Assembly (NCBI GenBank): GCA_051453625.1
Contig: JBOZIK010000001.1
Location: forward strand, 6,155,517 to 6,219,259
Direction of reading: 5' to 3'
DNA length: 63,743 nt
Origin: Welwitschia mirabilis
Taxonomy: Eukaryota
In this document: positions 23,191-51,600 of the stretch, one piece after another
Layout of the letters: each line of letters begins with the position of its first letter
Numbering within the stretch: the first letter of the stretch is position 1
The notes under the pieces: model-generated
What the model was told of the DNA's origin: nothing
Database searches by the model: none
Seen by the model: the letters and a program-made list of their open reading frames with translations, nothing else
Position numbers and translations under genes: made by a program

Positions 23191-23269
23191 ACCTCAACAA
23201 TATAGCCACATGCATTACAAAAAATAAACCTTCACACATATTTTAAGTAATATAAATTGAGATCTTACA

Positions 23270-23620
23270 TAAACTGCTTCACGCATATCTTAGGAGAAGA
23301 AATCAAGCCCCTATAGAAATTGGTTCATGCATATTTCTTAAGAAGAAACTGAGTTCCTACAAAAACTACTTTATGCATATTTATTAAGAAGAAACTAAGT
23401 TCCTATGGAAATTGAGATCCTGTGTTGAGAATTGACCCATGTTGAATTTCCTGTCTTGCATCAAGAATTGGCCTGTGTTAAATCATCCATCCTGTGTCGA
23501 GAATCAGCCTACATCAAATCACCTATCCTACATTAAGAATTAGTCATCCTACATTGAATTGTCCATCTTGTATTGAGAATATGTTGTCCTACATAGAATT
23601 ATTCATCTTGCATGGAATCA
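23270..23620 (+). repeat. Degenerate tandem minisatellites inside the CACTA 5' region
   Basis: Three roughly 50-bp gcatat..aagaagaaact.agttccta units, then roughly 34-bp tcctgtgttgagaatt units. Confidence 0.6.
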
Positions 23621-26600
23621 CCATACTCTCCTCTATCATAAATCATCATACAAGAAAGGGACTAAAAGCTCAGATAATCAGTGAGTAAAGGGAAAACTGC
23701 AGAATAGCGTGTTTAGACTGGGCCACCTTCTTGTTCAAGTCCTTGAATCCCACCACTTTCCTCATTCATATATGTGTGCTTATTTCTTTTAGTTTTCTAT
23801 CCTCTAGATTCAATATTCTAAATATCTCTATAATTAGTAATACACATTAACATTTCTTTTATGCATATTCCTTCAAGTTTAAATACACACATACATATTT
23901 ATTCTTCAAGGCTAAAACAAGTTTAAAGACATATCAATATGTGTAACATAACATGTTCATTTCATTATGAAGAAACAGGAACAATGATTTCAGATTGCAA
24001 TATAAGATGTGTATAAAAGTAACAATGATAAGAATAATGCTCGAAGACAGATGATTTATTTGAAAGTGACGATGATTTTAGATAGCATTTCTAGTTACAC
24101 ATTGTTCCTTAATTTGGAAATAGCATCCTTTCTATAACTTGGTTATAATTGAGTGAACTTCCTAGTCTCCTTGTTATGGCAAGATGAAAATTAGCCTTCT
24201 TCCAAAAAAAAAAAAAAATCCTGGTTATTCCTTTTTTTCTTAATTCATAATAGTCCATATGCTTCAAACTTAGAAAGTATGTCTTAGATCTAAAACATGA
24301 TTTTCTAAAATGATGGTTTACCTAAAATACGATTGCTAAGATGGATAAATAGCTATTGAATTTTCTAGGGTCTAACTACTCTTCATTTTGTCTGTATTCG
24401 TTACACTTCAGAAAATGTAGACATGCAACTTGAAAATATTTTAGTAGGAATAATAGTAAATTCAATGGAGTTTAAGTGAAAATTTGAAAATTTAAAACTA
24501 CCAGGCTTACAAACTAATTAGAGAAGATTTAAATACATCCTTTAATCTTCTAAGCTTTAGCAAGACCTACCCAAGAATCCAAATTTACCCTCCATGATAT
24601 AAAGGATAAGAAAGTTTTTCTAGCATGTTATTTAGAGTTATCTTTAAAGTACTAAAGTATGATATCAAATTATAGTAAATTTTTATGACATTTGGATCAC
24701 TTATTATTTGTTTGATTGATTTAATAAGGTACTCATCAACATTACTTGGATTTGAATAGAGCTTTTGTAAAATCCATTAAATACATGATCATTTCTTTAC
24801 CTACCAAAAGGTGAATTGGACACATTAAAGAGTAGGGGAACGTATGAATTCATTAATTTTAGTGAGATGCATTAGGATTTTATCTATAAGTAGTAGGAAC
24901 AGTCTTTGAGACATTTTGATGAAATATTAGGGGCATTGTAACTTATCATGGATTCCTACACTATTTCACATGAATGAATAAATCCTACATCTTGTATACA
25001 AGAGATTACAATCCACATAAATTGAAATCAATGTAAACTACCTCCAAGAGTTTTATATGCATTTTGGATATATGACATTAAAACAAGTGAAATCAATGTT
25101 ATTTGAAAGGATGGAGAATACTTCTTCATGAATAAATGTTATGTCCCAAGAGCCTGATAATTCTTAAAATGCAATTTATAATTAACAAGGAAATGGTTAT
25201 AAATGTGAATAAAGGACTCTATTAGCGTAGAATGAAAACTATCAACAAGGGAATGGTAAAAAGGTTTATAGGATTCCTCATAGTCTATTATTTCTTTCAA
25301 TTTTCTATTCTTTAGATTCAATATTCTGAATATCTCTATAATTAGTAATACACATATTTGTTGAGAAGAAATGTTTATAATTTTTGATGCCAATGACATA
25401 TGTGATTTTTTATGGTTTTTGGCCTTTTACGTGCCAAACCTAGGAGTTATGTCCTTTGACAAATGATTCATCCCCTTTTATTCAACAGTGACAATTTTAT
25501 ATTAGTGCATGCCCTTAAAAAAGCTTAACAGAGTCAATTAAGAAATGAAACAAACTTTATAAATATAAAACAAAGTAATTCATATGTGTGTGGGGCCTTA
25601 TGACATAATTACATGGTACAAGAGATAGAATGATGTTTAAATTTACCACATGCAAGAAACAAATAAGTGAATGCGTGGAGTTTAGAATGCATACATGATT
25701 TCATATAAGAGCTTTACATTGTCAGTACCACCAATTCAATCCATTTTCTTTATTGTGCACATGATTTGACAATAGTCCTTATATCATATTCATTCATAAG
25801 TATTATGTTTAAGAGTTGCACCATGCATTTGTATAGGGATTCCACTATTTAAATATTATTGCCCTCACACTTGTCATTTGATAATTGTATATGAAACATT
25901 GCATGCTTTAATTAATTCATAATTTTCATTATAAATAATAATATGATGTATCAATTTTGATGAATTATGTAAGATAAATCTAAATGTGGTTGATGGAGTC
26001 CTACCAAATAGTCTAGGCTTTCTCTCTCTTACTTTGACACTTAGGTTACCTGACAGTCTAAAACATAGGTTGGGACTTATAACTATGCCTAGGCAATTGG
26101 GTCTCCTACACATGGGTGTGGGCTTTTTGCCATGTTGAATGTGCACTTGACATTGATTTGGATTTATTAAGAAGAGGCCATGATCATATACCTCATTTAG
26201 AATCTGGATAGGATTTAATCATCAGAACTTCATTAATCAAATGTGCAATCATTGTTTTCATTCTGCTTGTAGCATGTTTGTTTGAATTGCAATGACAAAT
26301 GGGTTAAATAGAAACTTTAATATCCAATAACTCATAAAATGATATCTATCAAATTAAAGTTAGACAATTGAAATACTAAATGATTAATCATTTTNNNNNN
26401 NNNNNNNNNNNNNNNNNNNNNNNNNNNNNNNNNNNNNNNNNNNNNNNNNNNNNNNNNNNNNNNNNNNNNNNNNNNNNNNNNNNNNNNNNNNNNNNNNNNN
26501 NNNNNNNNNNNNNNNNNNNNNNNNNNNNNNNNNNNNNNNNNNNNNNNNNNNNNNNNNNNNNNNNNNNNNNNNNNNNNNNNNNNNNNNNNNNNNNNNNNNN

Positions 26601-28219
26601 NNNNNNNNNNNNNNNNNNNNNNNNNNNNNNNNNNNNNNNNNNNNNNNNNNNNNNNNNNNNNNNNNNNNNNNNNNNNNNNNNNNNNNNNNNNNNNNNNNNN
26701 NNNNNNNNNNNNNNNNNNNNNNNNNNNNNNNNNNNNNNNNNNNNNNNNNNNNNNNNNNNNNNNNNNNNNNNNNNNNNNNNNNNNNNNNNNNNNNNNNNNN
26801 NNNNNNNNNNNNNNNNNNNNNNNNNNNNNNNNNNNNNNNNNNNNNNNNNNNNNNNNGCAACAAAGTCAATAAGATTAAAAGCATTAGGTCATTTTGTTAA
26901 ATAACATATTAGGTCTTAGCAAAGGTTGCCTATATGGCTTAATCAAGGCTTCATTTTTCTAGAAATTGTTAGTTCAAAATTCAATCTATTGTAATTGGTA
27001 TCTTGATATCTTCCTATCAAATGTGGAACTAAAATACTTGTAAATTAGGCGCACCAATTTTGAAATCTCCTTGGTCATAAAGAAAAAATGAATTTGTCTT
27101 CACATTACAACATGGAATGCCTCTTTCATATCTTCATCTCAAACATCTCCTAGTACTATAGTTACATCATCAGATAATAATATTGAAACCATAAAATATC
27201 TTTAAGATTTAAGCCATTGAAAAGCCTAATAGAATTTTANNNNNNNNNNNNNNNNNNNNNNNNNNNNNNNNNNNNNNNNNNNNNNNNNNNNNNNNNNNNN
27301 NNNNNNNNNNNNNNNNNNNNNNNNNNNNNNNNNNNNNNNATCATCAGATAATAATATTTAAACCATAAAATATCTTTAAGATTTAAGCCATTGAAAAGCC
27401 TAATAGAATTTTACTTTTTGTAGAAATGTAGTTTATGTGCCTTACATTTGTGAATAAACTATAAAAGTGAGAAAACAATACTCCTTTTATAATATCCTAC
27501 TCTTTTGACATAACATATAACATGACCCCTTTTATTTTAAGACATTAATAGAAGTGGCAACTTAATCTACAATATCGATCAAATGTTAATAAACCTTATT
27601 GCCATTTAGATTGGTGTTGACATGTAAAAAAGTTAAAACATTAGTAACTTTGGACTAGGGTTACACATTTAGGAATAACATAAGGTAACAAAAATTCAAT
27701 TGAATGGTAGTCAAAGTTTATGTTTATGTTTAAAATTAAAAACTTATGTACTAAATGCAATGTTGGCATGCAAAAAAAGTAAAACATTAGTATATGAAAA
27801 TAACATATGTTTTAAGGACATGAATGAAAATGAGATTTATACCCAAAGTTCAAGACTATCTGAATGGTTTTATATATATAAAAGGACTTCTACCATCATA
27901 TTTTGTTAAGGGGTCTTTCGATTAGACAAACATCCCATATGTTAGACTACCATAGTTGGGTACTTTAACACTATATTACTATTAGACTAGCTAATATTTA
28001 TTCTAGATTCTCACTATTGTTGATGTTCTTCTATGATAGTTTACCTTGTGTTGAGACTATTATAGAAATACATATAATGAAATCATTATATCCATCATCG
28101 TCATCTGATAAATCCATCTATGTGAGGAACAAGGGCTAGATGTTTATGAAGAGGTATTACATATGCAATTACATCTAAAGTTATTCTTATAACTTTAAAA
28201 ATATCATGTACTTATTTGT

Positions 28220-31200
28220 CTAGTATTAATATGTATAGGACATGTAAGAAGTATGAGAATGGTGTAAAGAAGTTCATAGATTTTGCAATTAACAATTCTT
28301 TTAGTTCTCAAGGCATACTTTATGCATGTGTAAAATGCCGCAACCCTTGTTATCGACAATCAAATATAGTTTTTGAGCATCTTTTATGTAAAGGCATGGA
28401 TAATACATACATAAAATAGATTATGCATGGGAAAGAATTAGAATAATGCTATGAAAAATGTAGTAATAAAAATATAATACAAGATGATCCTATTTCCATG
28501 ATGAAATAAGCCTTTATGTTCTTTAATGAGGGGGAGTAATCACATAAAGAAAAAACCATCATGGATTTCTCAAATTCTAATAACTTCAATGGTGATGTAA
28601 AAAAAATGCAAAATATGATAGGTTAATTAAAGAAGGTAAGGAGCCATTGTACCCTAATTGCATAAAATATACAAAGCTTTCTATGATTATCAAATTACTT
28701 ACCATTAAAGGAATGGGTGCATGGTCAAATTCAACATTTTCAATATTGCTTGGTCTCTTTCATGAATTCTTTCTAGAAGGTAATACAATTCCATGTTATT
28801 ATAATCAATTGAAAAGGACACTTCACTCCCTAGGTATGAAATATGATAAATTACATGCATTCCTTAATGACTGTGTGTTATATTAGAAGGAGCATGAGAA
28901 TAAAAATAAATGTGCTCAGTGTGATGCGTCTAGATGGAAATCAAAGAGAGATACCAAGGACAGTAAGCTAGACAAAAGATTACCTATCAAAGTGTTGCAA
29001 TACTTTCCATTAATTCCAAAGCTACAAAGGCTTTATGCATCATTCACAATAGTGGAACATAAGATATAACATTCAAAAAGGTAGATAGACCATGACATAA
29101 TGCAACATCCAACAAATGCTCTATTATAGAAAAATATTAATGAATCATACAATGAATTTAAGCTTGAACCTAGACATGTAAGGCTTGATATTACAACAGA
29201 TGGATTTAATCCTTTTGAGGTGCTTTCCACTTCTTATAGTTGTTGGCAAGTTATGATGGTTGTCTATAACTTACCATCCTGGCTATGCATGACAAGGTCT
29301 TAGGTAATAGTTTCTTTACTCATACCCAGGCCTATAACCAGGAAAAGATATTGATGTGTACCTTCAACCTCTTATTAAAGAATTGAAGCTACTATGGTAT
29401 GAGAAAGTAAAAAAACACTTGATACACTAAAAAAGGAGTTATTTATCAGAAAAGCAGTGCTGTTTTGGACCATAAATGATTTTCCAGCATATGGAAACAT
29501 TTTAGGATGGAGCACGAAGGGGATATTAGCATGTATCATATGTGCTTATAATACCAATTTCCTATGGTTGTCTCATAATAGGAAACATTGTTACCAAGGG
29601 CATAGAAGATTCCTTAATAAAAATCATAGGTATAGACAAATGAATAGACCTTTAAATGGTCAAGTAGAAGAAGAATAAAAAGAAGAACCCACGCCATTAA
29701 GTAGTGAAGAGATTATTTTCCAACTTGATAACATGGATTTTACTTAGGGGAAGTGCATTTTTAAACATTAATAAAAAAAGGCAAAAATGCCAAAACATGG
29801 AAAGCAAGAAAACCATTTAAAGGTCACTCCACCTAGTAAATTTAAAAGATCACAAAATAAATGCAAGAAACCCAATTTGTGCATTCCAGGAGAAGAACAT
29901 AGCAATAGATGAAAAAAGAGATCAATACTATTTAATCTCCCATATTAAAAGGCAATAAAAGTTTATAAAATAATTTAACAATAAATTATTTTACTTTCTT
30001 ATGATTTCATTTAATAACTTTTTTATTTCTAACATGTACACAAAAACATGATATTCAACACAATTTGGATGTTATGCATATTGAAAGAAATATCTCTAAT
30101 AGCTTGGTAAGAAAAATCTTTAACATTAAATAAAAATCAAAGGATAAGCTTGAAGCATTACTTGATCTAAAAGAGCTAGGTCTCAGAGATGAACTTTCAC
30201 CTATTATGATGAGCAATGGTAAAAAGACATTCCTTGCACCTGCTAGTTTTGTGATGTTAGTAAGAAAAAAGAATTCTTTTCTTAATATGTTATCAGAATT
30301 GAAACTTCCAGAGGGGCATGCATCAAATATTCATAGATGTATCCTATAAAAAGAACATAGACTTTCTATCTTAAGAGTTATGACTACCATGTCCTTTTGC
30401 AACTTATTCTTCCCATTGCTTTTCATTACTTGCTTCCATGTAAGGTGCGTCCATTAATAATTCAAATGTTTTTATTATTCAAGGAGATTTATCATAAGGA
30501 AATTAATATAAAAATCTTGGGAGAACTAAAATTAAGAATTTCTATCATACTTTGTGATCTTGAGAGAATATTTCCTCTAACTTTCTTTGATATCATGATG
30601 TATTTACCTATTCATTTGGCAAGGGAGGTCAGGTTTTGTAGACCCGTGCAATATTGATAGATGTATCCTATAGAAAGGTAATAAACATATTTATTTTTTC
30701 CCCCATAAATTTATATTGTTAATAATTATGAACTAACTATGAAGTTTTAACATGTCTACTATTTAGGTTCTTGAAAGTTTTAAAGGGGTATGTCAATGTT
30801 GCGATCCCAAATTGTCATGTTTTAATGGTGTAATTGGAGATGTTTTACAAGCAATAGGATCTCAATTCAATCATTTTCAGGCATTTTATCATGAACTGAT
30901 CCAACAATCTAATTATGACATTAATGCCATATTTTCATCTAGAAAATCAAGAATTCAAACAAGGAATAAAGTGGAGGAAAAAGTGGAGGAGAAGACCAAA
31001 AAAATTATTGTCTTCCCCTTTATCATTCCCAAGACAGCGGGCATGACAACTCGAAGGAGGCTAGCTTAGGCTGACTTGGTGAGGTTGACGTGGCTTGCTG
31101 ACATGGTTGTCATGGTGCATGTCATCCCCATGACACTAGAGATAAGCCATTTATTTGTGAATTCAAATACCAACTGGATTTTGACATGGCTGGCTATGAT

Positions 31201-33180
31201 TGGAAGATGAAGGAGTGTCATGTCCATTGTCATCCCCACAATGACGATAATACAATAGTTTCATAACTTCTTCTTAACCGAGTCAATTAAGGTTTAGTTT
31301 ATGCTTAATGATGCCCCTTCCCCTGTACTAACCTCCCTGACCTGTAACCACCCTAGGAAAGCTATAAAAACCTCCATTTAGCATCATTTAGACATCTTTT
31401 TAGCATTAAAGGATTGGTGACAAAAGCATCTAAGGAGTCAAGGGTCTGTTTCAGCATAGGAGAGATTGTTCTTGGTGATTAGGCTATGGTTCTAACATTG
31501 AGGAGTCACTACCTTGCTGAGGTGATTGTAAGACATTCCATTGATTTAATAAAATGTCTTTATTCTTCTATTCTTATAATGTCTCTTATGATTTGTGTTA
31601 AAGTTGGATTAATACTATTTCTTAGATGAATTCCAAATTAGACACAAGTCATATGGGCTGAGTTGGGTGGCAACAACTCAGAAATTTGGTTATCATAGGC
31701 TTGCATTTCATTTCTCTTTCATAATTTGCATTGTACGATTAGAATATTTGCATTATCAATTTCCTTTTTGCATGACAAAAACACAAAATTGATTTAAACA
31801 TTTGATTGTAATTCAAGTTATATTCTTTCTTATTTATGTGCTTGATTAGATCGTTGCCTTATGCTCTCCAGATTACGATATTCATTGCTTAATTCACCCT
31901 ATACTAACCCTAATTGCAATTTACTTGTTTTAAGAATTGATTACTTTTGAAGTGTAAATTTAGGACACCAATAGTGAAAAAAAAAAAAAGAACAAAATAA
32001 AGGAATGCATTTCAGAAGCTTTTATTATAGAAGAAGCATTAATTTTTTGTAGTAAGTACATGATAAATATCGATACATTAAAAAATTGATTATAATGCAA
32101 TAAAGTTCTCAACAATGACTTCATTGAATCATCTATATATCCAAAAGGAAGATTATTAGGTGCAACAAATAGAATTCTATCGAGTGAAATAGAAAATGAA
32201 CAGGCACATAGATATGTGTTGTTTAATACCTCATGCATTGAATCATATGTGAAGTAAGTCAATCAGGATTTCATTATTTTATTGTTATTATATACATTCT
32301 TAATTTTATTTTTGGATAATCAACATCTACAAGAAATTCGTAGAGGCTTTTCATGAATGACAAAGTATAGAGATCGTTGTACTACTTGGTTTGAAGAACA
32401 TGTAATGTATGATACATTCTATATAAAGTTATTAATGGCTATGCAATTATGATGTCTAAAATATGTATACATATAAATTTTTTGATGTTTTAGATTTACA
32501 TGTTAAGGGAAAAAGCAATGCTTAATGAAGAATAAGAAAAAGAAGTAAAATGGTTGTCACATTGTCCAAGTAGGCATGCATAAAGGTACAAGGAATACCT
32601 AATTAATGGGTATTAGATTTCATGTAAAGGAGAGAAATGCAGAGTTAACATGTTAAAATAGTGGAGTTTCTATTATTACAAATACTCCATGTATATCAAC
32701 TGTAAAGTATAACAATCTCATAAGTAATTATGTAAAATATTATGGTATCTTGAAAGATATAGTCATATTAGATTATAGTTTTATATTTAATGTTGTAATC
32801 TTAAATGTGAATGGTTTGATGTTTTTCAATAAGCTGACATCAAGAAGAATGAGTATGATTTCATGCTTATTAACACAAGTAAATATGTCAGGGCTGATTA
32901 TGAATGAGATGAACCATTCATATTAGCTAGTCAAGCATCACATGTTTTCTATGTAAGGAACATTGAGAATCCTTCATAAAGTATTGTAGCAACATTTAAT
33001 CCAAGATATATTTATGATGAGAGTGAAAATATAGAATTTTCTAAAGTGGAAGAGGATAGGGAAGATAATTTGACATCCTTACACCATAGTTACCTCCTTG
33101 ATAAGGAGAATGATGCTAAAGTTAAAAACATAAAGTGGACTTATATAGATTCAGATGCTATTATGGTTGATGCTTGGAAT
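28220..33180 (+). pseudogene. CACTA TnpD/Tnp2 transposase pseudogene (multi-exon)
   Basis: CVKCRN, DGFNPF, IDVYLQPLIKELKLLW, WTINDFPAYGNILGWSTKG, HNLDVMHIERN, LPEGHASNI, FFDIMMYLPIHLAREV, MYPIER, YYGILKDI, DEPFILASQASHVFYV. Stops and frameshifts; split by a solo LTR at 30797. Confidence 0.93.
30797..31973 (+). mobile_element. Solo LTR (Gypsy/Athila-like family) inserted in a transposase exon
   Basis: Begins TGTTG, ends CAATA (CAACA with one change). TSD gtcaa (30792-30796) / gtgaa (31974-31978). Transposase reads LKGYV before and ECISEAFIIEEALIFCSKY after. Confidence 0.8.
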
Positions 33181-33989
33181 TTACAAGCTTCAGATTGTTC
33201 ACAATACGCATGTTATAAAAGAGTATACATTTATGTTCACTTAGAATATTAAATAATTAATATAGTTTTCATATCTATTTTATCTTATGATATTAATTTA
33301 TGTGAATAGTACTTGTAGCTATGTTATTGAAAGTAAGGAGGACATTAGGGGTGGTTCTTAGTTATCTTTGTTTTCATCTACTAGAGGTATGTTGATCAAG
33401 TTAGTAATTTTTTCTTTTTACATCATGGTATTTATTTTTACATTATTTATAGAATTAGGTTATGAAAATATAAGTTGTAGTTGAAAATATAAGTTAGAAA
33501 ATCAAATTATATTGGAAAATTTTAAAAACCATCATCATGTTCTTGATAGTTTAAAAGAATTAGTACATGCTAGTCTTAATTGATTTAATTTTAATAATTA
33601 ATATAAACTTCTTAACATAGTTTTTTTTAAGATATCCTCTAAGTACAAATATATTCTTTGAATATATTGAGGGATAAGAGCCTTCTTATGGGTATAAGAA
33701 AAAGAGGAAGAAGAAGGAACATGGAACCTTCTAATAGTATAGGATTTACCAATAAGAATATTATTTTTTCAAAATATTTTATGTGTGCATGTATAAAAAT
33801 TAAGTTTTATTTTGAAATATCATTCACTCATAAATAGTTCTTTCTCTATAAGTACTGATAATGTTAATGATTCTCCACAACAAGAGCAAAGAATATCTGA
33901 TACTGTTATAGGTAATAATAGATAGATATTTAAGAGTAATCACTTCATTACTTTATTTTGTTTTTATTAATTAGATTTTTTAATATATA

Positions 33990-35270
33990 GGAGAAGGTGG
34001 TGCTAGCTCCAATTCCACAAAAAGAGGAAAAGCAAAATGCCTTGACTTAGCCAAAATTTGGCCCAATGAGAAGATACAAATGAGATGGAATAAGAAAGGC
34101 TAAGCAATTGGTCCAAATAGAGAAAAATTATCATTCTACTTGGGGAAAATATTAAGGGATAATATAATTACACTGAAAAAATATAAAAATTACAGAGCAC
34201 TACCTAAGCATTTAAAAAATGATTTATGGGATATGGTCAATATATGTTATTATTCAATAATTATTTCATACACACATATAACTTGTGATTATTACATTCC
34301 ATTTTAATACATGTCAAACATATAGCAAAAATTTGAAGTGTCTAAAGAGAATAAGAACTTTGTATTCAAAAAGATGTGTAAACCATGGTGTGAACAAAAA
34401 AATAAAGTGGAAAAGGACTTTTATGATGCTTATAAGAATGATGCAGATAAGCTTGCACATGTTCTTGGGAATTTCAACTACAACAATGGCAAGAGATGGT
34501 GGCATATTTGAGTTTAAACAAATGGCAAGTATGTAAGATGCATCTTAAGAGTTTTAACCTAGAATACATTCTAAAATAATTATAGACATATTCTTAACAT
34601 TCAAATTTTCTATATGTTAATAGGAATTAAGACAAAGAAACAAAAGATGTAATAGGCAACAAGTTTACATCATATCAGTGGAAGAAAACCTATGGAACAA
34701 ATAGAAGATGATATGGTGATAAACTATTGAATTAATAAGAACAAATGTTTTTCCAATGTGTTATTTCTAATGTTAATACTGATTATTATAGAGAGTGAAG
34801 ACATGAGATATTTCAAAAATAATAGATCATGTAAATCTATGGAAAAAATGCATACATTAGGTTAGATGGATCAACAGCTACATCAAAAGCTATTAAAATT
34901 ATTATAAGTAGTAATTACTTAATTTATAATACTCTAAACATACATTGTCTGAACAACTTTCATATCATTTTATGCAAGAGAAAATAAATAAAGTGATTGA
35001 AGAAAATCCAAATAACATGTTAACTACTAGATATGCTTCCATTGCATGTGTGCTAGATCTTGAGTATCCTAGTAGATTTTGTGCTATCCGTGATTTTGTA
35101 ATAATTAAAAGTTTCTTTCTAAGGAAAACATCTTCTATGAGCTCATCTCAAGTTATTCATAATTTAAATGAACTTAGAAAGGAGAATAAGTATTTTAAAA
35201 TAAATTAGCAAGTATGGAAGAAAAAATTTCAAAAATTATGAATATGTTGTAATAAGCAGGTCCTTTGGTA
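33990..35270 (+). pseudogene. CACTA TnpA-like (Ptta/Transposase_24) ORF remnant
   Basis: Exon chain downstream of TnpD with KRGKAKC, WNKKG*AIGPNREKLSFYLG, HISGRK and DHVNLWKKCIH-like motifs; position typical of TnpA. Confidence 0.6.
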
Positions 35271-35407
35271 AGAATGCAACTTCATTTTTTGTAATGTCAA
35301 TATACTTNNNNNNNNNNNNNNNNNNNNNNNNNNNNNNNNNNNNNNNNNNNNNNNNNNNNNNNNNNNNNNNNNNNNNNNNNNNNNNNNNNNNNNNNNNNNN
35401 NNNNNNN

Positions 35408-37897
35408 TGGTATTAATTTTGGACAAGTCCCTATCTTTTATGATAATACTAGTTCTAAAAACATATCTAAAAATTCTGTTCAGCACTTAAGAATCAAACA
35501 TATTAAGATAAGGCACAATTTTTAAAAAGATCAAATAGAAAAAGAACAAATTTCTATGACTTTTGTGAGTATAGATAAATAACTAGTAGATATTTTTACT
35601 AAACCCCTAAATTTTAATACTTTTCCTCATCTGTGAAATGAACTAGGGATTATCTCATTATCCTTTGGCTGATTGTAGGATGATCAACCAAATCCTTGAT
35701 TTGGAATGAAATCCAAGTTGCCCAGACCCTATTAGTTNNNNNNNNNNCAAAAAAGCTAGAAGTATAGAATGGAAAGTAATCATAGAATATAAATTGCATT
35801 ATCTGTTTCACTCTTTTCTATATGCTTTTGTTTGTTCTCTATTTTTGCTCTAATGTGTTTTTCTCTTCTTTGTCATTGATGCCAAAAAGGGGAGAATTAG
35901 TTGTATTGTTAATATGCTTTTAGAAGTAGTCTGCTCTTGATGAATACTTTTACGTTCTACTATCTATTTTAGTGAAATAAAAATGCACTTGTTTTTATGC
36001 TCTTCAATTTGTGTCTCAAAATTTTTAGTGCAAATCTAATTTTCCTATAAACTTAAATTTTTGATACACCAATCATTTAGGATAAAAATGTTATTTCTCC
36101 TATATATGTGTAAGTCCACTTTTAATTATCAATAAACAAAATGTTCAAAAAATAGAATGATTAAGATATGGTTAAAAATTATTTTCCATAAACATTTTAA
36201 CATTTTATAAACTCTCCAAATGTGTACCTCAAAATTGTTTTAATGTTAGTACAAATTGAAACTTATGAAAATGTGTTCATTTTGTATAAAAAGGCTTAAT
36301 ATTTTTAAAAAGCTTAATAGGCACATCGTGAGGGGAAGATTTCTTAATTTTAATATTTTACAACTAAGGAATGTTTACCATCAATGTTAAAGGGGGAGAT
36401 TGTTAGATTATGTATTCCCAATTGATGTTAAACTAATGTTTTCTGTGAAGCAAATTTTATGTATCTTGTGCAAAAAATATTAACCACTTGCAGGTTAGAT
36501 GCTAAATCTAAGAATGTCACATTGTGACCATTAGAAATTTGTCAAGTATACTTATCCTCTTAAGCGATCGACCTAACTTCTAATGGATCAATCGCACTTG
36601 GATCATACTCTCAGAATTGACTTGAATTTAGAGGGATTGACTAGACTTCTAAGGGGTTGACCGGACCTAAGAACTAGTGCTTCTAAATAGATTGTTAAGG
36701 GGTTGATTTTACTTATGAGGGATCGACTAACCTGAGCACTGTGCACCTAATATTCCTAAGCTGATCATCAAGGGGTTGACCAGACCTAATGTAGAATATT
36801 AGAATGGACTTTTATCAAGATAAGCGAGTGACCAAAAATTTATACGGGTGACTGGATAAGGGGTCAGCTGGACCTTAAGGGCTTAATCAGACATGAAAGC
36901 ATAAGAATCTAGAGTGACTGAAAAGTTCACTCGCATGACCTATTTAAGTCACGACACTAAGAGGGGTTGACTGGACATTTAAGGGGTCAACCGACTAGAA
37001 TGAAAATGAAATTATATATTAGTTCTGTATCCATTTTGTAGCCATTTATAGCCGTTGGAAGCGCATTTTTAATTGTAATAACCTAAAAGCCTTTTATTAT
37101 AAATAGTCAAGAGAGAAATCACTAGAAGAACTTTTTGATCTTTGGTTGAATGATTAAAAACTATGATTTATTAGTATACTAGCTTGATATTGTATTCTTG
37201 ACTAAGAAAGGGCTATCATCTATTATATCTGTGGATTCAAGGTCAGATCTTGTACTTCATTATTCATAGTTTGTATCATCCATAAAAGAAGAGCTCTATT
37301 ATATTCATTATACTGAAGAACGAGTGATATCAGTGCACCAAGGTATTTTACCATTACTATCACATCATCTAAATGTTGAGACTTAGCCTCCAAAGTCTAT
37401 TAAAAAGGTTGAGACTTAGCCCATAAAAGTCCATATGTAAAGGTTACAAATGAACCTACAATAACTGGAAAAGTTCATAGAGATCCAGATCGGACTTGGT
37501 AATAAGTTAATCATCGAGAGTGGAGCACAAGATTTCCTAAACCACTATAAAACTTAGATGCATGTGATCAGTATTTTTATGCTTCTTGTTATTTTCATTT
37601 TTCTAAATACTTTTAGTTATATGAATAAGTTTTCTAGTGATTTATCTCAAGTAAGTTTGTATTGTAAGTTTATTTGAATATTTTTCAGAACCTATTCACC
37701 CCCTCNNNNNNNNNNNNNNNNNNNNNNNNNNNNNNNNNNNNNNNNNNNNNNNNNNNNNNNNNNNNNNNNNNNNNNNNNNNNNNNNNNNNNNNNNNNNNNN
37801 NNNNNTGATTTATCTCAAGTAAGTTTGTATTGTAAGTTTATTTGAATATTTTTTAGAACCTGTTCACACCCTCCTCTAGGGTTCTCGATTCCCATTA
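35408..37897 (+). mobile_element. 3' portion of a SIRE/Maximus-type Copia element nested in the CACTA (RNase H tail, pre-LTR region, LTR 36401 to about 37897)
   Basis: RIKHIKIRH..LVDIFTKPL; several PPT-like tracts (aaaaaggggaga about 35884, aagggggagat 36390-36400), then TGTTAG. LTR has ggggtcgac-type repeats and a cctattcacccc end motif. Confidence 0.8.
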
Positions 37898-38349
37898 GTT
37901 ATTTCTCTTAAAATAGCCTTTCTAGAAACTAGGTTGGACTTTAGATTACTTCTCTCTATGAACCTTTTTATTCTTGTCTTGATCACTTACCATCTAGAAG
38001 CATGTTATTGATATGGTCTTCTATATTGTACTTCTCACACTTTCAAGAGTTCTTTCTCTATATTGGCATAAGATGTTTGTATAAACTAGAATCAATAGAT
38101 GTCTTGCTTGATTAACATGTGCTTTCATGTGGATGCTTTAAAAATCATTAGTAGGGATTGGAAACTAAGGATAGATTAAAAAAAACTTCAAGATTCCATT
38201 GAATTGGATGTAGTAGAGAGTTTAAAAAATTGTTAGTTAGTTGTCCCCTATGTTGCAAACATGCCAATAATAAAATATTTTATTTATTTGCAAGCTTTTA
38301 AAAAGATGCATGTATTATAATTGCAAAACTTTACTAAGATATTTTTCAG

Positions 38350-40385
38350 CATAATTTACAATAATGGAAGATCCAGAGGTATTTATCATTTCTCTTAGCT
38401 TATTAATAATTATTTAAAAAAATTTGTTAGTGTATTATATAAAGCATGTAGTCTTCTTATTGCACCTTCATGCTATGCATTTAACTAATTTGGCCTTCAT
38501 TATCTTGACAACATTTTCAACTACTTTAAGCCTCCAGACATTGTGAGAAAAAAAGACTAAATTGGCTCATAAGGTTTCAAATGTAGGTAATTTGTATGCA
38601 ACGTTGTGTAAATCTACTTTCATAAGGTTTTGTGAGTCTATCTAGTATAATGTTGTTAACTTTTATACAATTTTAATAGTAATTTATTAGTAATTTTTGA
38701 TACTTAAATCTTAGAAATTAATTAATCTAACTAATTTGAAAAATATACTTTATATGCATACCATTAAATTTCAGCTACACCCAAAGGAGAGAATTATTAT
38801 AATTATCTTAATGACTATCTCATGAGATCTTAAAGACATAGAATAAATGATGTCTATTTTCAAATGAGCCATACACTATACCTATAGGATGCTAAATATC
38901 ACTACAGAACATGATTTATCCATGTAAATGTACATGAAATATAGGAGTTTTGTCTACGAATGATTATACAGTTTGGGGGTTATAGATATTGGTCTTTGAG
39001 TGGCTCGTTTTTCATGGGTTTCAATGTTGATTATCATCTTTCTATAGACAATGGATATTTCCCATAATGTTGGAACAAAAAAATTCATTGTTTAAGGCTA
39101 GGTATCTATCTAAATGTAGCCTTGATATTTTTTATGGGTATAAAATATTGTCAATTATGGTTGTGGTTTGTATTTATATGCTTGAGGAATGTGGGATGGG
39201 GATATAAAAGAAAGGTAGAATAATTCAATTACTAGTGTTTGATTGAGTAATTTGGCTTCTAAGATGATTTTCATAGAGTAATTAATCTAATAAACTCATA
39301 TTAGAGTAACTATGGTAAAAAAGGCAATGGCTAATAAAAACATATATCTAGGATTACATCTCTTATGTATTTAGCATTACATCTCTAAACCTGACATTAA
39401 ACCTTGTTATGAGAGTTAATTAATAAAACATTCTATCATTGGTATTGTTATCAGAGGTTGATGTTTAATGTTTCTTGAATATAAATAAGAATTATGCATA
39501 GCTTAATATTTATTTCATGAACTTTGGGTGAGAAATGTTCAATAGGAAATTACTCTAGTAATTTCTTGTTCTTATCAAACATAAATACATATATCAATAA
39601 ATCATTTCAAGACACATGTAAGCAGTGTCCAACATACATTTAAAATTACATTGCTATGATGATCACCAGACTTAAAATCAAACTTAGAAAAGTATCTTCC
39701 TCTATAATTTTCTAAATTAAGAATTTCCTTATTCTACATAAGTAATTTGATATCAACTATTATAGCACTTAACCGAGTGTAATTAATGACTATATAAGTT
39801 TTTCATCTTTTTTATTGTAAATGATTTCTTACTATTATAGCATTTAGTAATTGAAATTAACTTTCATTGACTTTGCTACTTTTGTAGCTACTTTATCAGA
39901 AAGGAAGGAAATGTGTATTCCCATTGCACCTTTGTAACTATTAGAAACATAGAGGCATCAGATTCTCTTTCAGTAAAGATCACTTTTAATCTAGAAATGA
40001 TATTGTAAATACTAAGACTTTTTGATCATAGCCTTGATAACTACTTTGATTTCTTTCACTCTCCTTTAAGGTAAAATTAGAAGAATGCTTCTTACATTTT
40101 ATGAAATGTTATTAACTTATTTAGATTTAAGTGTTTCATGACATAAAAGCCTCTGCTTCTAGCATAAAAATGAAAAGACTTTAATGTCTGTAAATTCTTT
40201 CACTATCTAATTTGCTTTTTATGTAGTTGCATATGCTATCCTGCTCTGTACAATGTAGGTAATTTTTAGATGTAGCATGATAGCAGTATGATCACTTTTA
40301 TTGGTTCAGGATCATCATAGATACCATGCATACATGAGGGATTTGATAGGAAAGTAATAGAAGTAGTATAATTACTCACAGGGAT
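38350..40385 (+). pseudogene. Unidentified degenerate exon chain inside the CACTA
   Basis: Segments bounded mostly by AG/GT at 38350-38378, about 38521-38586, 38775-39101, 39888-40070, 40227-40258 and from 40310. Identity and frame not resolved. Confidence 0.45.
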
Positions 40386-40389
40386 ACGT

Positions 40390-40806
40390 TTGATCTCAGC
40401 AAGTTGATTTCAAACAAAGGTTCATCTCACTCCATACTTTAAAATAAGCATATCAAACAAAACTTCAAAATTTCTTAAAATAAATCCTATTGGAAAGGTG
40501 AGAGGTTTTACTTTTACTATTCTAGTTCGGTTGCCTTTGTATGAAGCACAACATTTTACAAATTTATTCTTTATTTGTGATGTCGGTTCTAGTTCGGGAA
40601 ACCCCTAATGGTCCAATTCCTGAAAGCAATGCAATAGCTCACCTTGGTAAAGATCATATCGCTATACATTCTAGTTGTTTTTAAACAATATTTGCGTTTT
40701 CTAATTGATTCTATTTAGTAAAAATTTGTTAAACAACAACTCTTATTTTATAGTTGCATAACTGAAGGGGGATACTAATCTATTCAGATCATCACTTATT
40801 GATTAT
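40390..40806 (+). pseudogene. EEF1G: Captured fragment of host eEF1B-gamma (elongation factor 1-gamma, GST-like N-domain): exons about 40390-40497, 40586-40646, 40754-40806
   Basis: KVHLTPYFKISISNKTSKFLKINPIGK|VLVRETPNGPIPESNAIAHL|VA*LKGDTNLFRSSLIDY| versus plant eEF1Bg MGVSNKTPEFLKMNPIGK VPVLETPDGPIFESNAIARYV ARLK..N.L.GSSLIDY (recalled). GT donors at 40498, 40647, 40807; phases consistent. Confidence 0.88.
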
Positions 40807-41514
40807 GTGAGTGTTAATGTCACTGTGTAATTTCTTTTAACTAATTCAAAGAATTTATTTATTTGAATCTATGTTTTTAATGAGGGAATATGGAATCCTT
40901 AGATATCATCGTACATCCTTTATGTGTGGATTTTATTCTATGTGTTTTTGGTTAATTTAACAATCTTTTCTATATATTCACTAGTTTGGGTCATTCATGC
41001 TAGTTGATTAATTTCTATTTTGGTAATGCATTTTTGCAGTCTTGAAGGATTTATTAAGTTTTATTTTACATTTTTAATAACAAAATAGAAATCCCTTAGA
41101 CATCATTATAAATATTTTACATGTTAATTATTTGAGTTATATCATTAATATTTCACTTTTGGTTTTGCATCATATTTTTTTTCCTTTAATAGTCTTCTCC
41201 ACATATTTATTGGTCTAGGTTATCCATTTTAATTAATTAATTTGCATTCTTCTAATGTATTTCTTGCATCTCTTCATCAGTTACAAAAGGGGAGGTAAAG
41301 CTACATGATAGTATATTATGGATCATGTTCTTATCTAATCACATCAATTAGCATATTCCATACTTCCACACTCTATTACAGAAATCTCCTTGATTGGATT
41401 TTATGTTAACCAAGGTCACCTTTTAGTGAAATTTGTGAGTTTTTATGTCTACTTTTAGCAGTAATTGAAATAACATAACAAAATCTTTTTTTTGGTATTT
41501 TTTCCTCCAAGTAA

Positions 41515-41890
41515 TACCTTTTGAGGTGTTTATTTCATAAAATGCCATAAAAGGATTTTCAAGGCATTTATCTACTAAAATGCCTTAAAAGCCCCTTTGG
41601 GATGTTTTTATTAAATAAATGCCTTAAAAGCTATTTTGAGGCATTTTATTACGTGAACGCCTCAAAAGCCCTATTAAGGCATTTATCTAGTAAAACACCT
41701 CAAAAGGACTTTTAAGGCAATGACTCAGAAAATGTGTTAAAAGATGTTTTAATGAGTGTTTATTTAAATGCCTTAGAAATGTCTTAATTTAAGATGAGTC
41801 TTTGTAAAGCGTTTTGTGAAAAAATGCCTTAAAATATTTTAAGGTGTTTTTAGTGCCTTTTAAGGCATTTTAGAAATGCCTTAAAAGTCG
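41515..41890. repeat. CACTA 3' subterminal repeat array
   Basis: Same aaggcattt / aatgccttaaaa motif family, dense, ending at the TIR. Confidence 0.88.
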
Positions 41891-41905
41891 ATACTTGTTG
41901 TAGTG

Positions 41906-43500
41906 TCATAAGAACATGAAGAGGGAATATTACATGTTGAGTAACATGACAATTACATTCTCATCAGGTAAGAAGAAGCAACCTTAAGTTAAAACTTGTT
42001 ATAGAAGATTTCTTCTTAGAACTCTAAGAAGATCTAATATTGTTTCCAACTTTTTATCAATACTTCCATTATTAGATAACAATTCAACTAAATAAAGTCC
42101 TTGGGTGATTCAACATTCTAAGACCATGGGAAGAAAGCATCTATTTCTGGTACTAGAATGAGCACATTTCCTTGATTCTCTGGTTTTATGGATAATAATG
42201 ATAATTGCAAAATTCAAAGATTCTAACAAACTCTTCTATGCCATAAAAATATCATGTCTAGTACTAGGATTAACACAAACTAAACTTGTAATTCTATGAT
42301 CAATGGTGAGATTTTGAAAGAGGAGACAATAGCTAAAGTTTCAAAATTTTTAAAAACAACCTCATACCACATATCATGAAAACCTAATCAGCGAGGCTTG
42401 TGTGTGAGGTCAAATAATGTATAATAATGAAAGGTTGCAAGTTGTTTTAATGACTGTATCTTGCATGAGTGACAATTTCTAATTTTTGGTTATTTTAGGA
42501 ATTACAAGATCAAATAATCTAAAGCAGGAAACATTAAGGTTCTTTCAATGGTCATATCTTGCGTGAGTGACAATCTTTGATTTTTGCTTATTTTAGGGAT
42601 TAATAGTTTAATAATGAAAACCTGAAGAATGAAATACATATTACTAATTTATGGACAACAATCACAAGTAAAATCTTAATTAGAAGGATTTCTTCCTTGT
42701 TAGGTGAAAGAATTTATAATCTTCCATTCAACACACCAACAAAGAAATAACAACTCATACCTCAGTTTTCCTCAAGTAACTAACCTTTTAAAATCTAATA
42801 AAATCTACATCAACACCATCTAGCTACTAGATGATGATAATTAAGATCTAATGACTCATTTGTGGGATCTTAAGAAAGGGGCCCAATGCAAAAATTTCCT
42901 CTTGCATGTACATGGAAATAATAAAGAAGGTACAGTTCTAAGAGAAAAATAGAAAGGTTGTAACTTGTAACAAGAGTAGTTTTTAGGGGCATATGTTCTC
43001 CAACCAGATTTCTACAAATATCATGTTCTTAAGTAGTATCAAACATTCAAATTTAAGAGGAATGGTCTTTAGCATAGTCATCACTTTGAATAAAAGAAAA
43101 TATCCTAGAAAGAGAGTGTATATACTAATGGCCATAATAAAGATACATGTAAAAATTATTTAAAAGGATCATTTCACTTAAAATATGTCAAAACATAGTG
43201 TTGAGGAATAAGAAAACATAACACTCTCGTAAGGAGTCCGATTTTGAAAAAGAATCTCACTCAAATTAGTAGTCATTAAGAATGGCATACAAATGGGATG
43301 GGATTGGGAACTCTATCTAAAAATATCAAAAACTCACATGATACATGTAGTTTAAATGAAACATGAGAAATATATGGAATTTCTTCATTTTCAAATCAAA
43401 ATTTACATTGACAGCATTACATGTTTCATTTATCATATAAGAAGCAAAATATATTCACAGCTAGAATAGGAGAAGTAATAACCCCAGATCACCATGCATT
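41906..43500 (-). mobile_element. Degenerate Copia remnant (RNase H/RT and integrase traces)
   Basis: S*SSKKKSSITS (SWSSKKQ-like, about 42000-42030), STRHDI (TRPDI-like, about 42250), IQSDDYAK (about 43070-43095). 41906-42656 is repeated at about 48000-48698. Confidence 0.55.
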
Positions 43501-43962
43501 AAAGAAAATAACTTTGTCAATTAATTTTTATAGCTATTTCAAAGAGTTGACATATTAACAGCTTACAGCCCAAGCATAAAATTATGGTATGCATTATAAA
43601 TTTTAAAACTTTAGATCTTGAACTATGTTGTGCATTTCTTGTGTTTAAGGAAAAGTACATTGTGTGTCTAACACCCTATTTTATGTGATTTTATTTGCAT
43701 AATATTTTGAGAAAATAATTGAAGAAATTCACCCATTCCAAAAGCCATAATTTCTTTTTGTGTATTCTAGCATGCCTCTCTGTTGTCTATCTATGTATCA
43801 AAATTATTCTAACTAAAAATTAAGATTTTTTTATCTATCTTTTAAATTGTAGAGAGATGTCATAATATCAAAACTTAGTTTAAATTTTACAAATTAATAT
43901 CGCATTAAATGGAATAATAACATGGAAAATATATCATGACAATGATTCACTCAAACTTCAAA

Positions 43963-45474
43963 TGTAAGGAATGGCTCAAGGGGGTACACCATTTGATGCT
44001 CTACCCACAAGATCGCTCACAAACAAGCGGTGGTCTGCATCTATAAAACACGCTCAGGGCATGGAGATTTCTTCATCAGTGCTTCAGTGCTGTTTCTCAA
44101 GTGTTTGGTTGCTTAACAAGTGGTATCAGAGTGCTTGTTTGATCCTGTCCTCCTGCAGCCACCATCGCTGCCCCTCCTCTTCGTGCCTGTTTTTGGTCAG
44201 AGTGTTTCATTTTAGTTGATGCTGTTCCATCGCGGTTCCACCCTAGATTCGCTTCTTTCAGTTTTCAATTATCTGCGGCATCAATCCTTACGGCCTTCGT
44301 CAACACCCTTGCTCCGCAGTTCTGCCTAAGCTTGTGCCCTTTCAGTCTTCACCGCCTTGTACGTTATCTTCTTTGCAGTGCTTAAGCGACTCTCCGCCTT
44401 ATGCTGCTCTGCTTGCCACTGCTCCTTTTGAAGCGACGGCATGCTATTTGCCTTCTCCATGCTACCCTGAGAGTTTGCCTCCACCGCGCCTCCACATTGC
44501 TCTCCTACATTTCACTGTGACTACCCTGTCAATCAGTTCATGTGCTTATAGACTACTGCCAGCTCTGTCTGCTACACTCACCATTTTCCACGGCCACCTT
44601 CCAGTGTGGCTAATCTCCATCTATGTTTGGTTTGATGCTCTTTTTCCCCCCAGTTTTCATATCGGTTTTTCATCGCGGTTCTTGCCTTTTGGTGTTTCTT
44701 TACCTATGTGACACTCCCACACCTCTGCACACCCTTCTGGTTTATGGCTTGTCCCCACCTATTCTGCCTTTTCGTGTGCTCTTTTCACACCACTGTGGCT
44801 CTGCTCCTTGTAAGTCTTCTCTATTGTAGCTTTCTTTTGGCTTAAGTTTTTTTTTTGTGATGCCCTTTCTTTGGANNNNNNNNNNNNNNNNNNNNNNNNN
44901 NNNNNNNNNNNNNNNNNNNNNNNNNNNNNNNNNNNNNNNNNNNNNNNNNNNNNNNNNNNNNNNNNNNNNNNNNNNTTAAGTTTTTTTTTCGTGATGCCCT
45001 TTCTATGGACACATCACCTTGCTACCTCCGCTCAATGCTCAACCTGTTAGCTACAGCTCGACGCTGACTCTTTAGCCTTGGCGGCTTCTAGACGATCCAC
45101 GAGTTTGTCTTCATGATTCTCTCTATGGTGGTTCTTTCTTCAGCTTCGCATCACCGTTTTGTGCATTTCTGCTATCATCGTTTTTCACAGCCCTGCGCAT
45201 TTGTTTTGTGCATTTTTTCCTAGCGCTCCATGCATTTTGCGTGACTCTTCCACCATGGCTCTTTATTTCACACGCCCATTTGAGCCACAGGGGAGATTGT
45301 AAGGGGTGGCTCAAGGGGGCACACCATTTGATTCTTAGTCCACAGGATCACTCATAAACAAGCAGAGGTCTACATCTATAAAACATGCTTAGGGCATGGA
45401 GATTTTTTCATCAGCGTTTCGGTGCTATTCATCAGTGCTCCGGCGCTGTTTCTCAAGCGTTTGGTCACTTAACA
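43963..45474 (+). mobile_element. Non-autonomous short-LTR retroelement (TRIM-like), structurally complete
   Basis: LTR1 43963-44118 and LTR2 45298-45474, both TG..CA. PBS tggtatcagag 44121-44131; PPT aggggagat 45289-45297; perfect TSD tcaaa (43958-43962 / 45475-45479). No recognisable coding domains. Confidence 0.93.
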
Positions 45475-48699: not shown

Positions 48700-51600
48700 T
48701 ATTAAGTTAATATTTATTAATTGAATGTTAAACTAACATTTTCTATTTAGTAAAACATGTTTTACCTTGTGTATAAAATATTAATCATTAAGTTTATAAT
48801 CTAGAATAATTTATTACAATTTAAACCTAAACCTATTAGTTCTTATACCCTATTGAGGGATTAACCAAATTCCTAAGAGATTGATTGAACCTAAAGCTTA
48901 CACTAAAATGAACTAAATTTAGAGGGGTTAACCAGAAACATGAGGGGTCAACTAGATATGAGCATCAAATACTTCACAGATGATCATTAAGGGGTCGATT
49001 GAACACATGAGGGTTGATTGAACTTGAGCATCTAATACTTCATAGCCGATTGTTAAGGGGTCGACCAAATTCCTGAGGGGTCGACCAGACCTAAACATCA
49101 AACTCTTGTAGCCAATCGTTAAGGGCTCGAATAGATTCCTGAGGGGTCAACCAGACCTAGAGTGATGTTTTCACCCTTTATTAATAAGGGACTGACCAGA
49201 TATTTGTGGGGTTAACTAGACCTAGAGCAAAAAATAGTGTTGCAATTTTTCCTAAATAAGGGGGTGACTGGATGAACATGTAAGTGACCAGACTAGTGGT
49301 TGACCAAATCCTAAGGAGCCAACTAGACATGTAGCTATAAGAAATAGGGGTCAACTTGAAGAACATGAGGATGACCCACTTCAATAACGACATCNNNNNN
49401 NNNNNNNNNNNNNNNNNNNNNNNNNNNNNNNNNNNNNNNNNNNNNNNNNNNNNNNNNNNNNNNNNNNNNNNNNNNNNNNNNNNNNNNNNNNNNNNNNNNN
49501 NNNNNNNNNNNNNNNNNNNNNNNNNNNNNNNNNNNNNNNNNNNNNNNNNNNNNNNNNNNNNNNNNNNNNNNNNNNNNNNNNNNNNNNNNNNNNNNNNNNN
49601 NNNNNNNNNNNNNNNNNNNNNNNNNNNNNNNNNNNNNNNNNNNNNNNNNNNNNNNNNNNNNNNNNNNNNNNNNNNNNNNNNNNNNNNNNNNNNNNNNNNN
49701 NNNNNNNNNNNNNNNNNNNNNNNNNNNNNNNNNNNNNNNNNNNNNNNNNNNNNNNNNNNNNNNNNNNNNNNNNNNNNNNNNNNNNNNNNNNNNNNNNNNN
49801 NNNNNNNNNNNNNNNNNNNNNNNNNNNNNNNNNNNNNNNNNNNNNNNNNNNNNNNNNNNNNNNNNNNNNNNNNNNNNNNNNNNNNNNNNNNNNNNNNNNN
49901 NNNNNNNNNNNNNNNNNNNNATTTCGAAGAGTTGACTGATTGTGATAGAAATAGGATTTTTCTAGCCGTTATGAACCCATTTTTTATCTATTGAAAGGTA
50001 TTTTTACTTGTAACATCCTTAAAAGACTTCTCTTGTCTATTTCTTAAGAGTTAAAATCACTAAATAATTTTTAAATAATTGTGAAATCATAGTTGTACTT
50101 ATTGGCATATTCTTTACCTGATCAAAGACAATATAAGAGCTATCATTATTATTGTGTACTTGGTCAAGTTAGTTTCACTGTATGCTTATGGATTGTACCA
50201 TCTTCTCAAGCAGGGTAGTAATACTATTCTTGAGCTAGAGATTAGATGAAACTTATGTATTTTGGCATACCATTATTACTGCTTTACACTCTTGCTAAAG
50301 GTTAAGATTAAGCCTTAGAAAAATACGATCGTAAAGGTTACAGGTGGACCTAAAATACCTAGAAAAAGATTAATGAAGATCCATATCAGGCTTGAATAAA
50401 AGCTGATCATCGAAAGTGGAGTAGGAGGTTTCCTGAACCACTATAAATCTTGTGTGCATCCTGATTAGTATTTTTATGCTTTCTGTTCTTTATTTTTTAG
50501 AATAGCTTCAGCTTTATTTGCATAAATATTTTAATGTTTATTTTAAGTAAAGATATATTTATAAATATTTAATTATTTTTTAAATCCTATTCATCTCCCC
50601 ACCCCTCCGCCCTAAACCCAAGGTTCTTGATCTTGCTTTTAGTATCGAAACTTGGTAGAGTTCATGTTAGATCCTAATAGATCTAGATTTCTAAACCATA
50701 AAAATAAGTAACTCTTCAAATGGTTTTTCCATTGGTCATCCACCCATGCTTGATGAATAAATCTATGCATATTGAAAAGCCCATATGGGGATTCTTCTTA
50801 GATCCTTAGATGCAGACATTGAAGAGGTTATTTACAATGGTTATATTATGACCACTTTGACTAAAATAGATGTTCATGAAAATACCATTATAATAGAAAA
50901 AAAAAGACTAATAAATCCTCACTGATAGATTCAAAACTATCATAGAAATCCATGCTCTTAATGCAATTTTTATGTAGTTTATGTAGATGAGTTTAAATGA
51001 ATTATAAACTATGATCATGCAAAAGAAGCTTAGTACATCCTTAAAATAGCACATGAAGAACATTCATCATTAGGTAGGCAAAACTCCAAATGCTTATTTC
51101 CAAGTTTAAAGACATTTATATGGATGACCAAGAGACACTATAGAAATTCTTTGCCAGACTTATAGACATTGTAAATTCCATGACAAGTCTAGGTAAAAGA
51201 ATGAATAAGGTAAAAGTGATTTAAAAAGTGTTGATATACCTCCAAAAAGATTTACGCCAAAAGTTACTGTAATTGAAGAAATCAAGAATATAGATCTAAT
51301 TACACTCGAGGAATTACAGAATAATTTATAAACTTATGAATTAAAATTTTCTAAAGATAAAAAGAAAGGTATTTATTTAAAATGTATGTAGGAAGAATAC
51401 AAATAAGAAAAATTAGACAAAGATCTTGATGATGATAAAGTTGCCCTACTAGCAAGGAGATTTAAAAAATTTTTACACAGAAGAAAGAAATAAGGTAAGC
51501 CAAGCAGAGGATTAAAAAGAAATCACTTCAAGTTCAGAAAAGATCAAGAAAAAGAAAAGAAGATCCAATGTTATGCTTGAAAAGGCTATGGACACAGGGA

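Follow-up and report, generated by a model that had tools for sequence, protein, structure and literature searches.

How a stretch of a housekeeping translation factor gene came to lie between what look like the two ends of a CACTA transposon is the question raised by positions 40390-40806 of the Welwitschia mirabilis DNA analyzed here (63,743 nt; referred to below as the window). On the plus strand, this interval contains three short open pieces (40390/40417-40497, 40586-40646, and 40754-40806), each of which has a GT behind it. AAG closes the first piece at 40497, with GTGAGA directly behind it; the second has a CG upstream where an acceptor AG is expected and GTAAAG downstream; the third lies between an upstream AG and a downstream GTGAGT. 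The lengths of the pieces (81 + 61 + 53 = 195 nt) keep a single frame across the two junctions. An earlier note, made from the letters of this DNA, had described three segments with GT donors and compatible phases, and both the sequence and the frames were found to be as claimed. The coordinates of all features are collected in Table 1.

The pieces were identified by the use of full-length proteins as queries. Metagenome contigs were scanned with a degenerate pattern for a nine-residue motif, which yielded at least 120 loci, and 41 open reading frames (ORFs) of 380 to 470 amino acids (aa) surrounding the motif were taken from among the loci listed. Four of the 41 ORFs were submitted to Pfam, and all four contained EF1G (E values of 1e-43 to 8e-41), GST_N, and GST_C. 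The combination of these three domains is the architecture of eEF1B-gamma. When the 41 ORFs were compared with the window by tblastn, colinear matches were confined to 40390-40500, 40577-40642, and 40753-40845; their linked E values were 7e-11 to 4e-10. In a control with 200 shuffled versions of four queries, the best E value was 0.022 and none fell below 1e-3. A profile built from 15 plant-like ORFs with at least 60% identity to one plant eEF1B-gamma sequence (L038) and searched against the six frames of the window recovered the three pieces with i-E values of 4.3e-7, 0.015, and 0.57, and the cargo matched profile positions 23 to 105 only. No further eEF1B-gamma exon was detected by this profile in six frames of the 63.7-kb window, inside or outside the element (next best i-E, 5.1). 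A weak recurring tblastn match at 5426-5551 on the minus strand to the GST_C part (best E value of 0.055, 10 queries) was rejected, as its profile i-E was 5.1 with a negative score.

Splicing of the three pieces in the script gave 74 codons, with the two stops written as X, that aligned over their full length of 74 positions, with no gap, to plant-like eEF1B-gamma ORFs, which indicates that the junctions are correctly placed. The spliced sequence reached an E value of 2.5e-23 against the 41 ORFs. Among the 15 best matches listed, identity was 51 to 59% over the 74 residues. Intron positions and phases were identical between the cargo and plant eEF1B-gamma genes (L018, L038, L070, and L092 and the genomic loci L019 and L090); the cargo differs from these genes by two stops, a lost acceptor, and the lack of the GST_C and EF1G parts. 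The colinear tblastn matches, the profile, and the clean shuffled control therefore substantiate the proposal that the segments correspond to plant eEF1B-gamma.

Queries with single pieces were far less informative. No Pfam family was found with any of four such queries, and two single-exon queries had no match among PDB sequences; 15 PDB matches to exon 1 were all designed beta-trefoil repeats over 14 residues and were taken as chance. A protein homologue search among longer proteins returned 14 candidates, none of them at an E value of ≤10, a representative-protein search with the 31-aa exon 1 piece returned no protein at an E value of ≤0.001, and the ESM Atlas gave no usable match. Single exons thus proved too short for every library, and the identity, as read from sequence, rests on the full-length proteins. 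A rice EF1-gamma-like mass spectrometry peptide given in one source (PMC4320625) overlaps the exon 1 motif and lends minor, weak side support.

To compare the locus with expressed genes of the same plant, two RNA sequencing runs with the same species label (X13 and X16) and two DNA runs (X5 and X7) were mapped to 22400-42300 at 80% likeness. RNA depth in the bin 40328-40991 was 3.4 to 5.8, versus 0 to 0.6 in adjacent bins. Behind 40499, 35 (X13) and 57 (X16) RNA reads overhung the window, and their next letters were those of the donor exon 2 start (VPVLETPDGPI..); before 40753, 25 X13 reads overhung with the donor exon 2 end (..IFESNAIARY). These overhangs indicate that an abundant mRNA of the species is spliced exactly at the two predicted junctions. 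Introns after ..NPxGK (phase 0) and ..ARY+G (phase 1) were also present in genomic metagenome loci of eEF1B-gamma (L090, L117, and L019/L031/L107), and a further intron, after ..SSLI.Y, occurs in the L019 group and in L099. EF1G-region matches lie downstream in L090 and L019/L031/L107 but not in L117. The intron after ..ARY is absent from L099, L072, and L112, and in L099 that after ..NPxGK is missing as well; these intron positions are therefore common but not universal. The retention of introns at the splice positions of the donor indicates a copy made at the DNA level rather than a retrocopy, which is what had been proposed from the letters, and both the read overhangs and the shared intron positions uphold it.

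The two edges of the copy were delimited in the same way. Similarity at the protein level begins at 40390, the start given in the earlier note, and similarity to the donor mRNA begins at 40416, before which 55 X16 RNA reads overhang with coding letters that are missing from the window. Because of these overhangs, and because the first coding exon is unbroken from its start to ..NPxGK in L090, L117, and L019/L031/L107, the copy must begin inside exon 1. The window copy starts inside exon 1 and ends in intron 3, and the 3′ edge of the captured DNA is located somewhere in 40807-41086. The cargo contains the final ~27 to 36 codons of the first coding exon, exons 2 and 3 together with introns 1 and 2, and the first part of intron 3.

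The copy of eEF1B-gamma is decayed. A stop codon in the third segment and a tcg in place of one acceptor had been pointed out in the earlier note; exon 3 does contain a TAA, the first acceptor, before exon 2, is CG instead of AG, and a second in-frame stop, a TGA at 40405-40407, was found in the exon 1 piece, where the tblastn match from 40390 reads through it. By eye, exon 2 differed from the donor mRNA in 11 of its 61 bases and 6 of 20 residues, and the longest run identical to the donor mRNA was 11 nt. Of the RNA reads mapped across the 19.9 kb, at most 17 of 953 (X13) and 5 of 568 (X16) were at least 95% like the window, so that the cargo is not seen to be used. The cargo covers approximately residues 19 to 92 of a protein of ~427 aa, and a functional gene with GST_N, GST_C, and EF1G in one frame was not found, nothing beyond profile positions 23 to 105 being matched in the six frames. 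With this limited coverage and two stops, the cargo encodes nothing useful. After capture, it would have drifted neutrally and is probably silent DNA. A role as a source of small interfering RNA (siRNA) against the donor eEF1B-gamma gene, which had also been suggested, looks weak and is not favored by the divergence seen.

TABLE 1 Features of the eEF1B-gamma fragment and of the surrounding CACTA element (positions in the window; a dot stands for no strand)
Feature	Positions	Strand	Evidence or remark
5′ target site duplication, TCA	22768-22770	.	Repeated at 41906-41908
5′ terminal inverted repeat, CACTATAAGAAATATAGG, canonical end of the family	22771-22788	+	Sequence match
5′ subterminal repeats, AATGCCTTAAAA motif in both orientations	22832-23123	.	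Motif count; 161-bp unit ×2
Transposase remnant, Transpos_assoc	28150-28419	+	PF13963, E 5.7e-13
Transposase remnant, Transposase_21 (tnp2)	29403-29678	+	PF02992, E 1.6e-28
Transposase remnant, DUF4218	30361-30657	+	PF13960, E 8.2e-14
Low-copy internal block upstream of the cargo	38336-40389	.	Depth 10-22 (X7) and 26-56 (X5); thousands at 27.7-37.7 kb
3′ part of the first coding exon of eEF1B-gamma	40390-40497	+	tblastn and profile, i-E 4.3e-7
Intron 1, 88 nt, GT...CG, acceptor lost	40498-40585	+	Sequence and RNA read overhangs
Exon 2, 61 nt, phase 1 at end	40586-40646	+	tblastn and profile
Intron 2, 107 nt, GT...AG	40647-40753	+	Sequence and RNA read overhangs
Exon 3, 53 nt, TAA at 40759-40761	40754-40806	+	Sequence, tblastn, and profile
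Start of intron 3 (GTGAGT) and low-copy tail	40807-41086	+	Paralogous, diverged contigs extend to 41075-41086, and the bin that follows is deeper
3′ subterminal repeats	41541-41886	.	AATGCCTTAAAA motif
3′ terminal inverted repeat, minus-strand CACTACAACAAGTATCGA	41888-41905	-	Identical to the 5′ end at 13 of 18 bases
3′ target site duplication, TCA	41906-41908	.	Same as 22768-22770

The cargo sits in a degenerate CACTA (En/Spm) element of ~19.1 kb that extends from 22771 to 41905. Its termini read CACTA (22771-22775) and TAGTG (41901-41905), and a TCA/TCA duplication of 3 bp flanks both ends (probability of a chance match, 1/64). With as many as 3 mismatches allowed, the window contains no copy of the CACTATAAGAAATATAGG end other than that at 22771, and the minus-strand end CACTACAACAAG... 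terminates at 41905. The two termini are alike at 26 of 40 positions and at 13 of the first 18, the 3′ end being a diverged form. The subterminal motif AATGCCTTAAAA occurred 21 times in the window at up to 1 mismatch, compared to 1.58 expected matches, and 19 of the 21 were located in 22832-23123 and 41541-41886. The first 3′ subterminal repeat (41541) lies 735 bp beyond 40806, in agreement with the ~700 bp estimated previously. Family copies in the DNA runs leave the window after 41887 (132 X5 and 85 X7 records) with an overhang consensus of 18 nt that is approximately the reverse complement of the 5′ end, from which it differs in the last listed terminal base; this consensus places the family terminus where the element ends. 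A candidate for a second CACTA start at 38900 (CACTACAGAA) was rejected, since it shares only 7 bases with the 3′ end and has no subterminal repeats in its vicinity. Between the ends, the three transposase domains are encoded by plus-strand ORF pieces of 89 to 98 aa (91 aa for Transposase_21), and no ORF of ≥110 aa covers the domains at 28150-30657, which indicates that the transposase gene is broken.

The interval 40390-40806 is best explained as a dead copy, made at the DNA level, of the first part of the species' own eEF1B-gamma gene, one that was probably acquired by the ~19.1-kb CACTA element. The acquisition step itself is inferred. The element could have taken up the fragment by template switching, or by the synthesis of filler DNA, in the course of postexcision repair; alternatively, DNA between two neighboring elements could have been remobilized together with them, as proposed for Pack-CACTA elements (PMC6379663, PMC8903248).

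The most serious competing explanation, which we regard as unlikely, is that of a resident pseudogene: an old duplicated or broken eEF1B-gamma fragment would have lain in ordinary DNA, the 3′ end of a CACTA element or a truncated element would have landed alongside, and scaffolding would have joined an unrelated core, so that nothing was captured. The assembly gives this explanation some weight. The window is a scaffolded draft with 14 N runs (e.g., 26395-26856, 49395-49920, and 54722-55141) and gaps of 10, 100, and 420 to 526 N. Five N runs are crossed within the element (26395-26856, 27240-27339, 35308-35407, 35738-35747, and 37706-37805), and only 37806-44875 is gap free; therefore, the cargo and the 3′ end are linked to the transposase part through scaffolding, and structural claims across N runs are provisional. 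The terminal repeats are imperfect, and no empty site was seen among the reads of X5, X7, X13, and X16 on 22400-42300. Joints of ~19 kb (22796/22799/22802 to 41819) were considered as an empty site; their sides of 24 to 31 nt lie in repeats, and they more likely stem from short family members. Also in line with a resident fragment, only ~0.4 kb of the 2.7-kb low-copy block that contains the cargo is eEF1B-gamma-like, and the remainder has no match. Against it, no other eEF1B-gamma exon was found on either side in the 63.7 kb, and the matching TCA duplication pairs with the sole 5′ end in the window. Moreover, the block and both of its flanks recur in several diverged copies. The absence of colinear eEF1B-gamma exons outside the element in this window thus favors capture, as the earlier note had supposed.

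The DNA reads also separate the block from its surroundings. Depth reached thousands at 27.7 to 37.7 kb and was 10 to 56 at 38.3 to 41.0 kb, where the cargo lies in the low-copy block of ~2.7 kb between the transposase region and the 3′ subterminal repeats. Contigs that are 81 to 87% alike extend across the cargo into both of its flanks (X7 records 14 and 16; X5 records 6 and 8). Each of the two organism labels also has a near-identical contig, with 4 differences in 394 for X5 record 7 and 5 differences in 408 for X7 record 15. The diverged contigs across the cargo could reflect segmental duplication rather than transposition. An X5 joint from 38153 to 41798 suggests a relative that lacks the block, and this joint likewise speaks against a resident pseudogene. 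No Pfam family was matched by any of 10 ORFs, of which 8 came from low-copy blocks (three of them from 38336-40389) and 2 from the repeated core. A second low-copy block inside the element, at 23700-27700, had a depth of 4.5 to 42 in bins spanning 23.7 to 27.0 kb, and its five largest ORFs were among those with no Pfam match.

Delivery of the cargo by a nested MULE, hAT, or Helitron instead of the CACTA element is highly unlikely. Such an origin would fit the mosaic nature of the low-copy block, in which RNA reads of another gene match at least one further exon-like piece (~38520-38590); however, no convincing inverted-repeat pair brackets the cargo in 37806-41540 (the best was 28 nt at 75%), and no second CACTA end is present. 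We give less credence still to the idea that the element is a mosaic "gene-fragment collector" whose regions at 23.7 to 27.7 kb and 38.3 to 41.1 kb hold pieces of several expressed host genes, the front end of eEF1B-gamma being one, and whose cargo touches eEF1B-gamma in trans through small RNAs or chimeric read-through. If this were true, the cargo would, under silencing by RNA-directed methylation, affect an essential translation factor gene in trans. Finally, an origin by retroposition, as a processed pseudogene, or a merely fortuitous likeness to a GST-like protein, for which the failure of single exons in Pfam, PDB, and large protein libraries might speak, is refuted by two introns kept at donor splice positions and three colinear matches with E values of ~1e-10 and a clean shuffled control.

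Three other places near the cargo were recorded. At 38520-38590 on the plus strand, an exon-like piece lies between AG and GT and is covered by RNA reads of both runs; a C-to-T difference at 38566 was present in 19 and 21 RNA reads, and the cleanest read had 3 other differences. This piece therefore looks like an exon from a different expressed gene and may represent a second fragment captured within this low-copy block. A 57-nt stretch at 37904-37960 was covered by 29 to 40 RNA reads per side and run, with unrelated letters overhanging on both sides (agreement of 0.99 to 1) and no clean splice signals adjoining; it may be a third gene-derived scrap or a repeat shared with an abundant mRNA. 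The region 40215-40268 forms a direct repeat with the exon 3 acceptor (19 nt, 84%) and another with the donor-site region of the 38.5-kb exon-like piece at 38580-38596 (17 nt, 94%). These short direct repeats may be due to chance or may be a sign of mosaic assembly.

The preferred reading, capture by the CACTA element, places the locus beside several described systems. Pack-CACTA elements of Arabidopsis are reported as CACTA elements that carry host gene fragments (PMC6379663), and the Welwitschia element shares with Pack-CACTA and Pack-TYPE elements, as presented by Catoni et al. (PMC6379663) and by Gisby and Catoni (PMC8903248), the CACTA terminal repeats, a target duplication, and internal DNA derived from a host coding gene. 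The route of capture described there, in which DNA between two neighboring insertions is remobilized, could apply here. In the Pack-TYPE scheme (packFinder), however, an element with a transposase match is classed as autonomous and not as Pack-TYPE (PMC8903248), whereas the Welwitschia element has three transposase-domain remnants. Of the Pack-CACTA label proposed in the earlier note, the internal host coding-gene DNA (eEF1B-gamma) therefore stands, while the transposase-free shell does not, in view of Transposase_21 (E value of 1.6e-28) and two more domains. The presence of these remnants marks the element as a decayed CACTA with cargo and not as a strict Pack-CACTA.

The soybean element Tgm-Express1, as described by Zabala and Vodkin (PMC1947982), is a 5.7-kb CACTA element with five unrelated host fragments, which are spliced into the transcript of the gene hosting the element. 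CACTA-type ends and host fragments carried as genomic DNA with exons and introns are common to both cases; the Welwitschia element differs in its size of ~19 kb, in having kept transposase remnants, in its one verified fragment, and in that no use of the cargo was seen. Complete CACTAs of Chenopodium bear gene fragments (Neprosin and AP2) in the 5′ region upstream of ORF1, according to PMC8978399. They resemble the present element in combining a transposase with short nonfunctional host gene fragments outside the coding region, whereas the Welwitschia fragment lies in the 3′ region and is derived from eEF1B-gamma.

Capture of host gene fragments by CACTA elements is an established class of mechanism, and the present nonfunctional copy is an ordinary further example of it. 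No CACTA capture of eEF1B-gamma specifically was found in a literature search by title; supplementary tables of Pack-TYPE studies may name captured genes. The locus adds one well-documented case of gene-fragment capture by a CACTA element, with splice-junction proof from the species' own mRNA; transposase remnants are still in the element, and the cargo comes from a housekeeping translation factor. The eEF1B-gamma cargo opens no new question. It does carry a warning for annotation: gene prediction software, or gene counting by BLAST, could list a false additional eEF1B-gamma or GST-like gene at this locus.

Two further observations concern other parts of the window. Within the mapped region, RNA depth peaked (up to 15) inside the element at 34019-34850 on the plus strand, with spliced joints from 34239 to 34324 and from 34715 to 34850 in both RNA runs. 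No Pfam family was found on the ORFs tried in this region, and we read the signal as coming from the second (TnpA-like) gene of the family, transcribed in other copies. Outside the CACTA element, a reverse transcriptase fragment (RVT_1; E value of 7e-13) at 7059-7445 on the minus strand represents a retroelement remnant.
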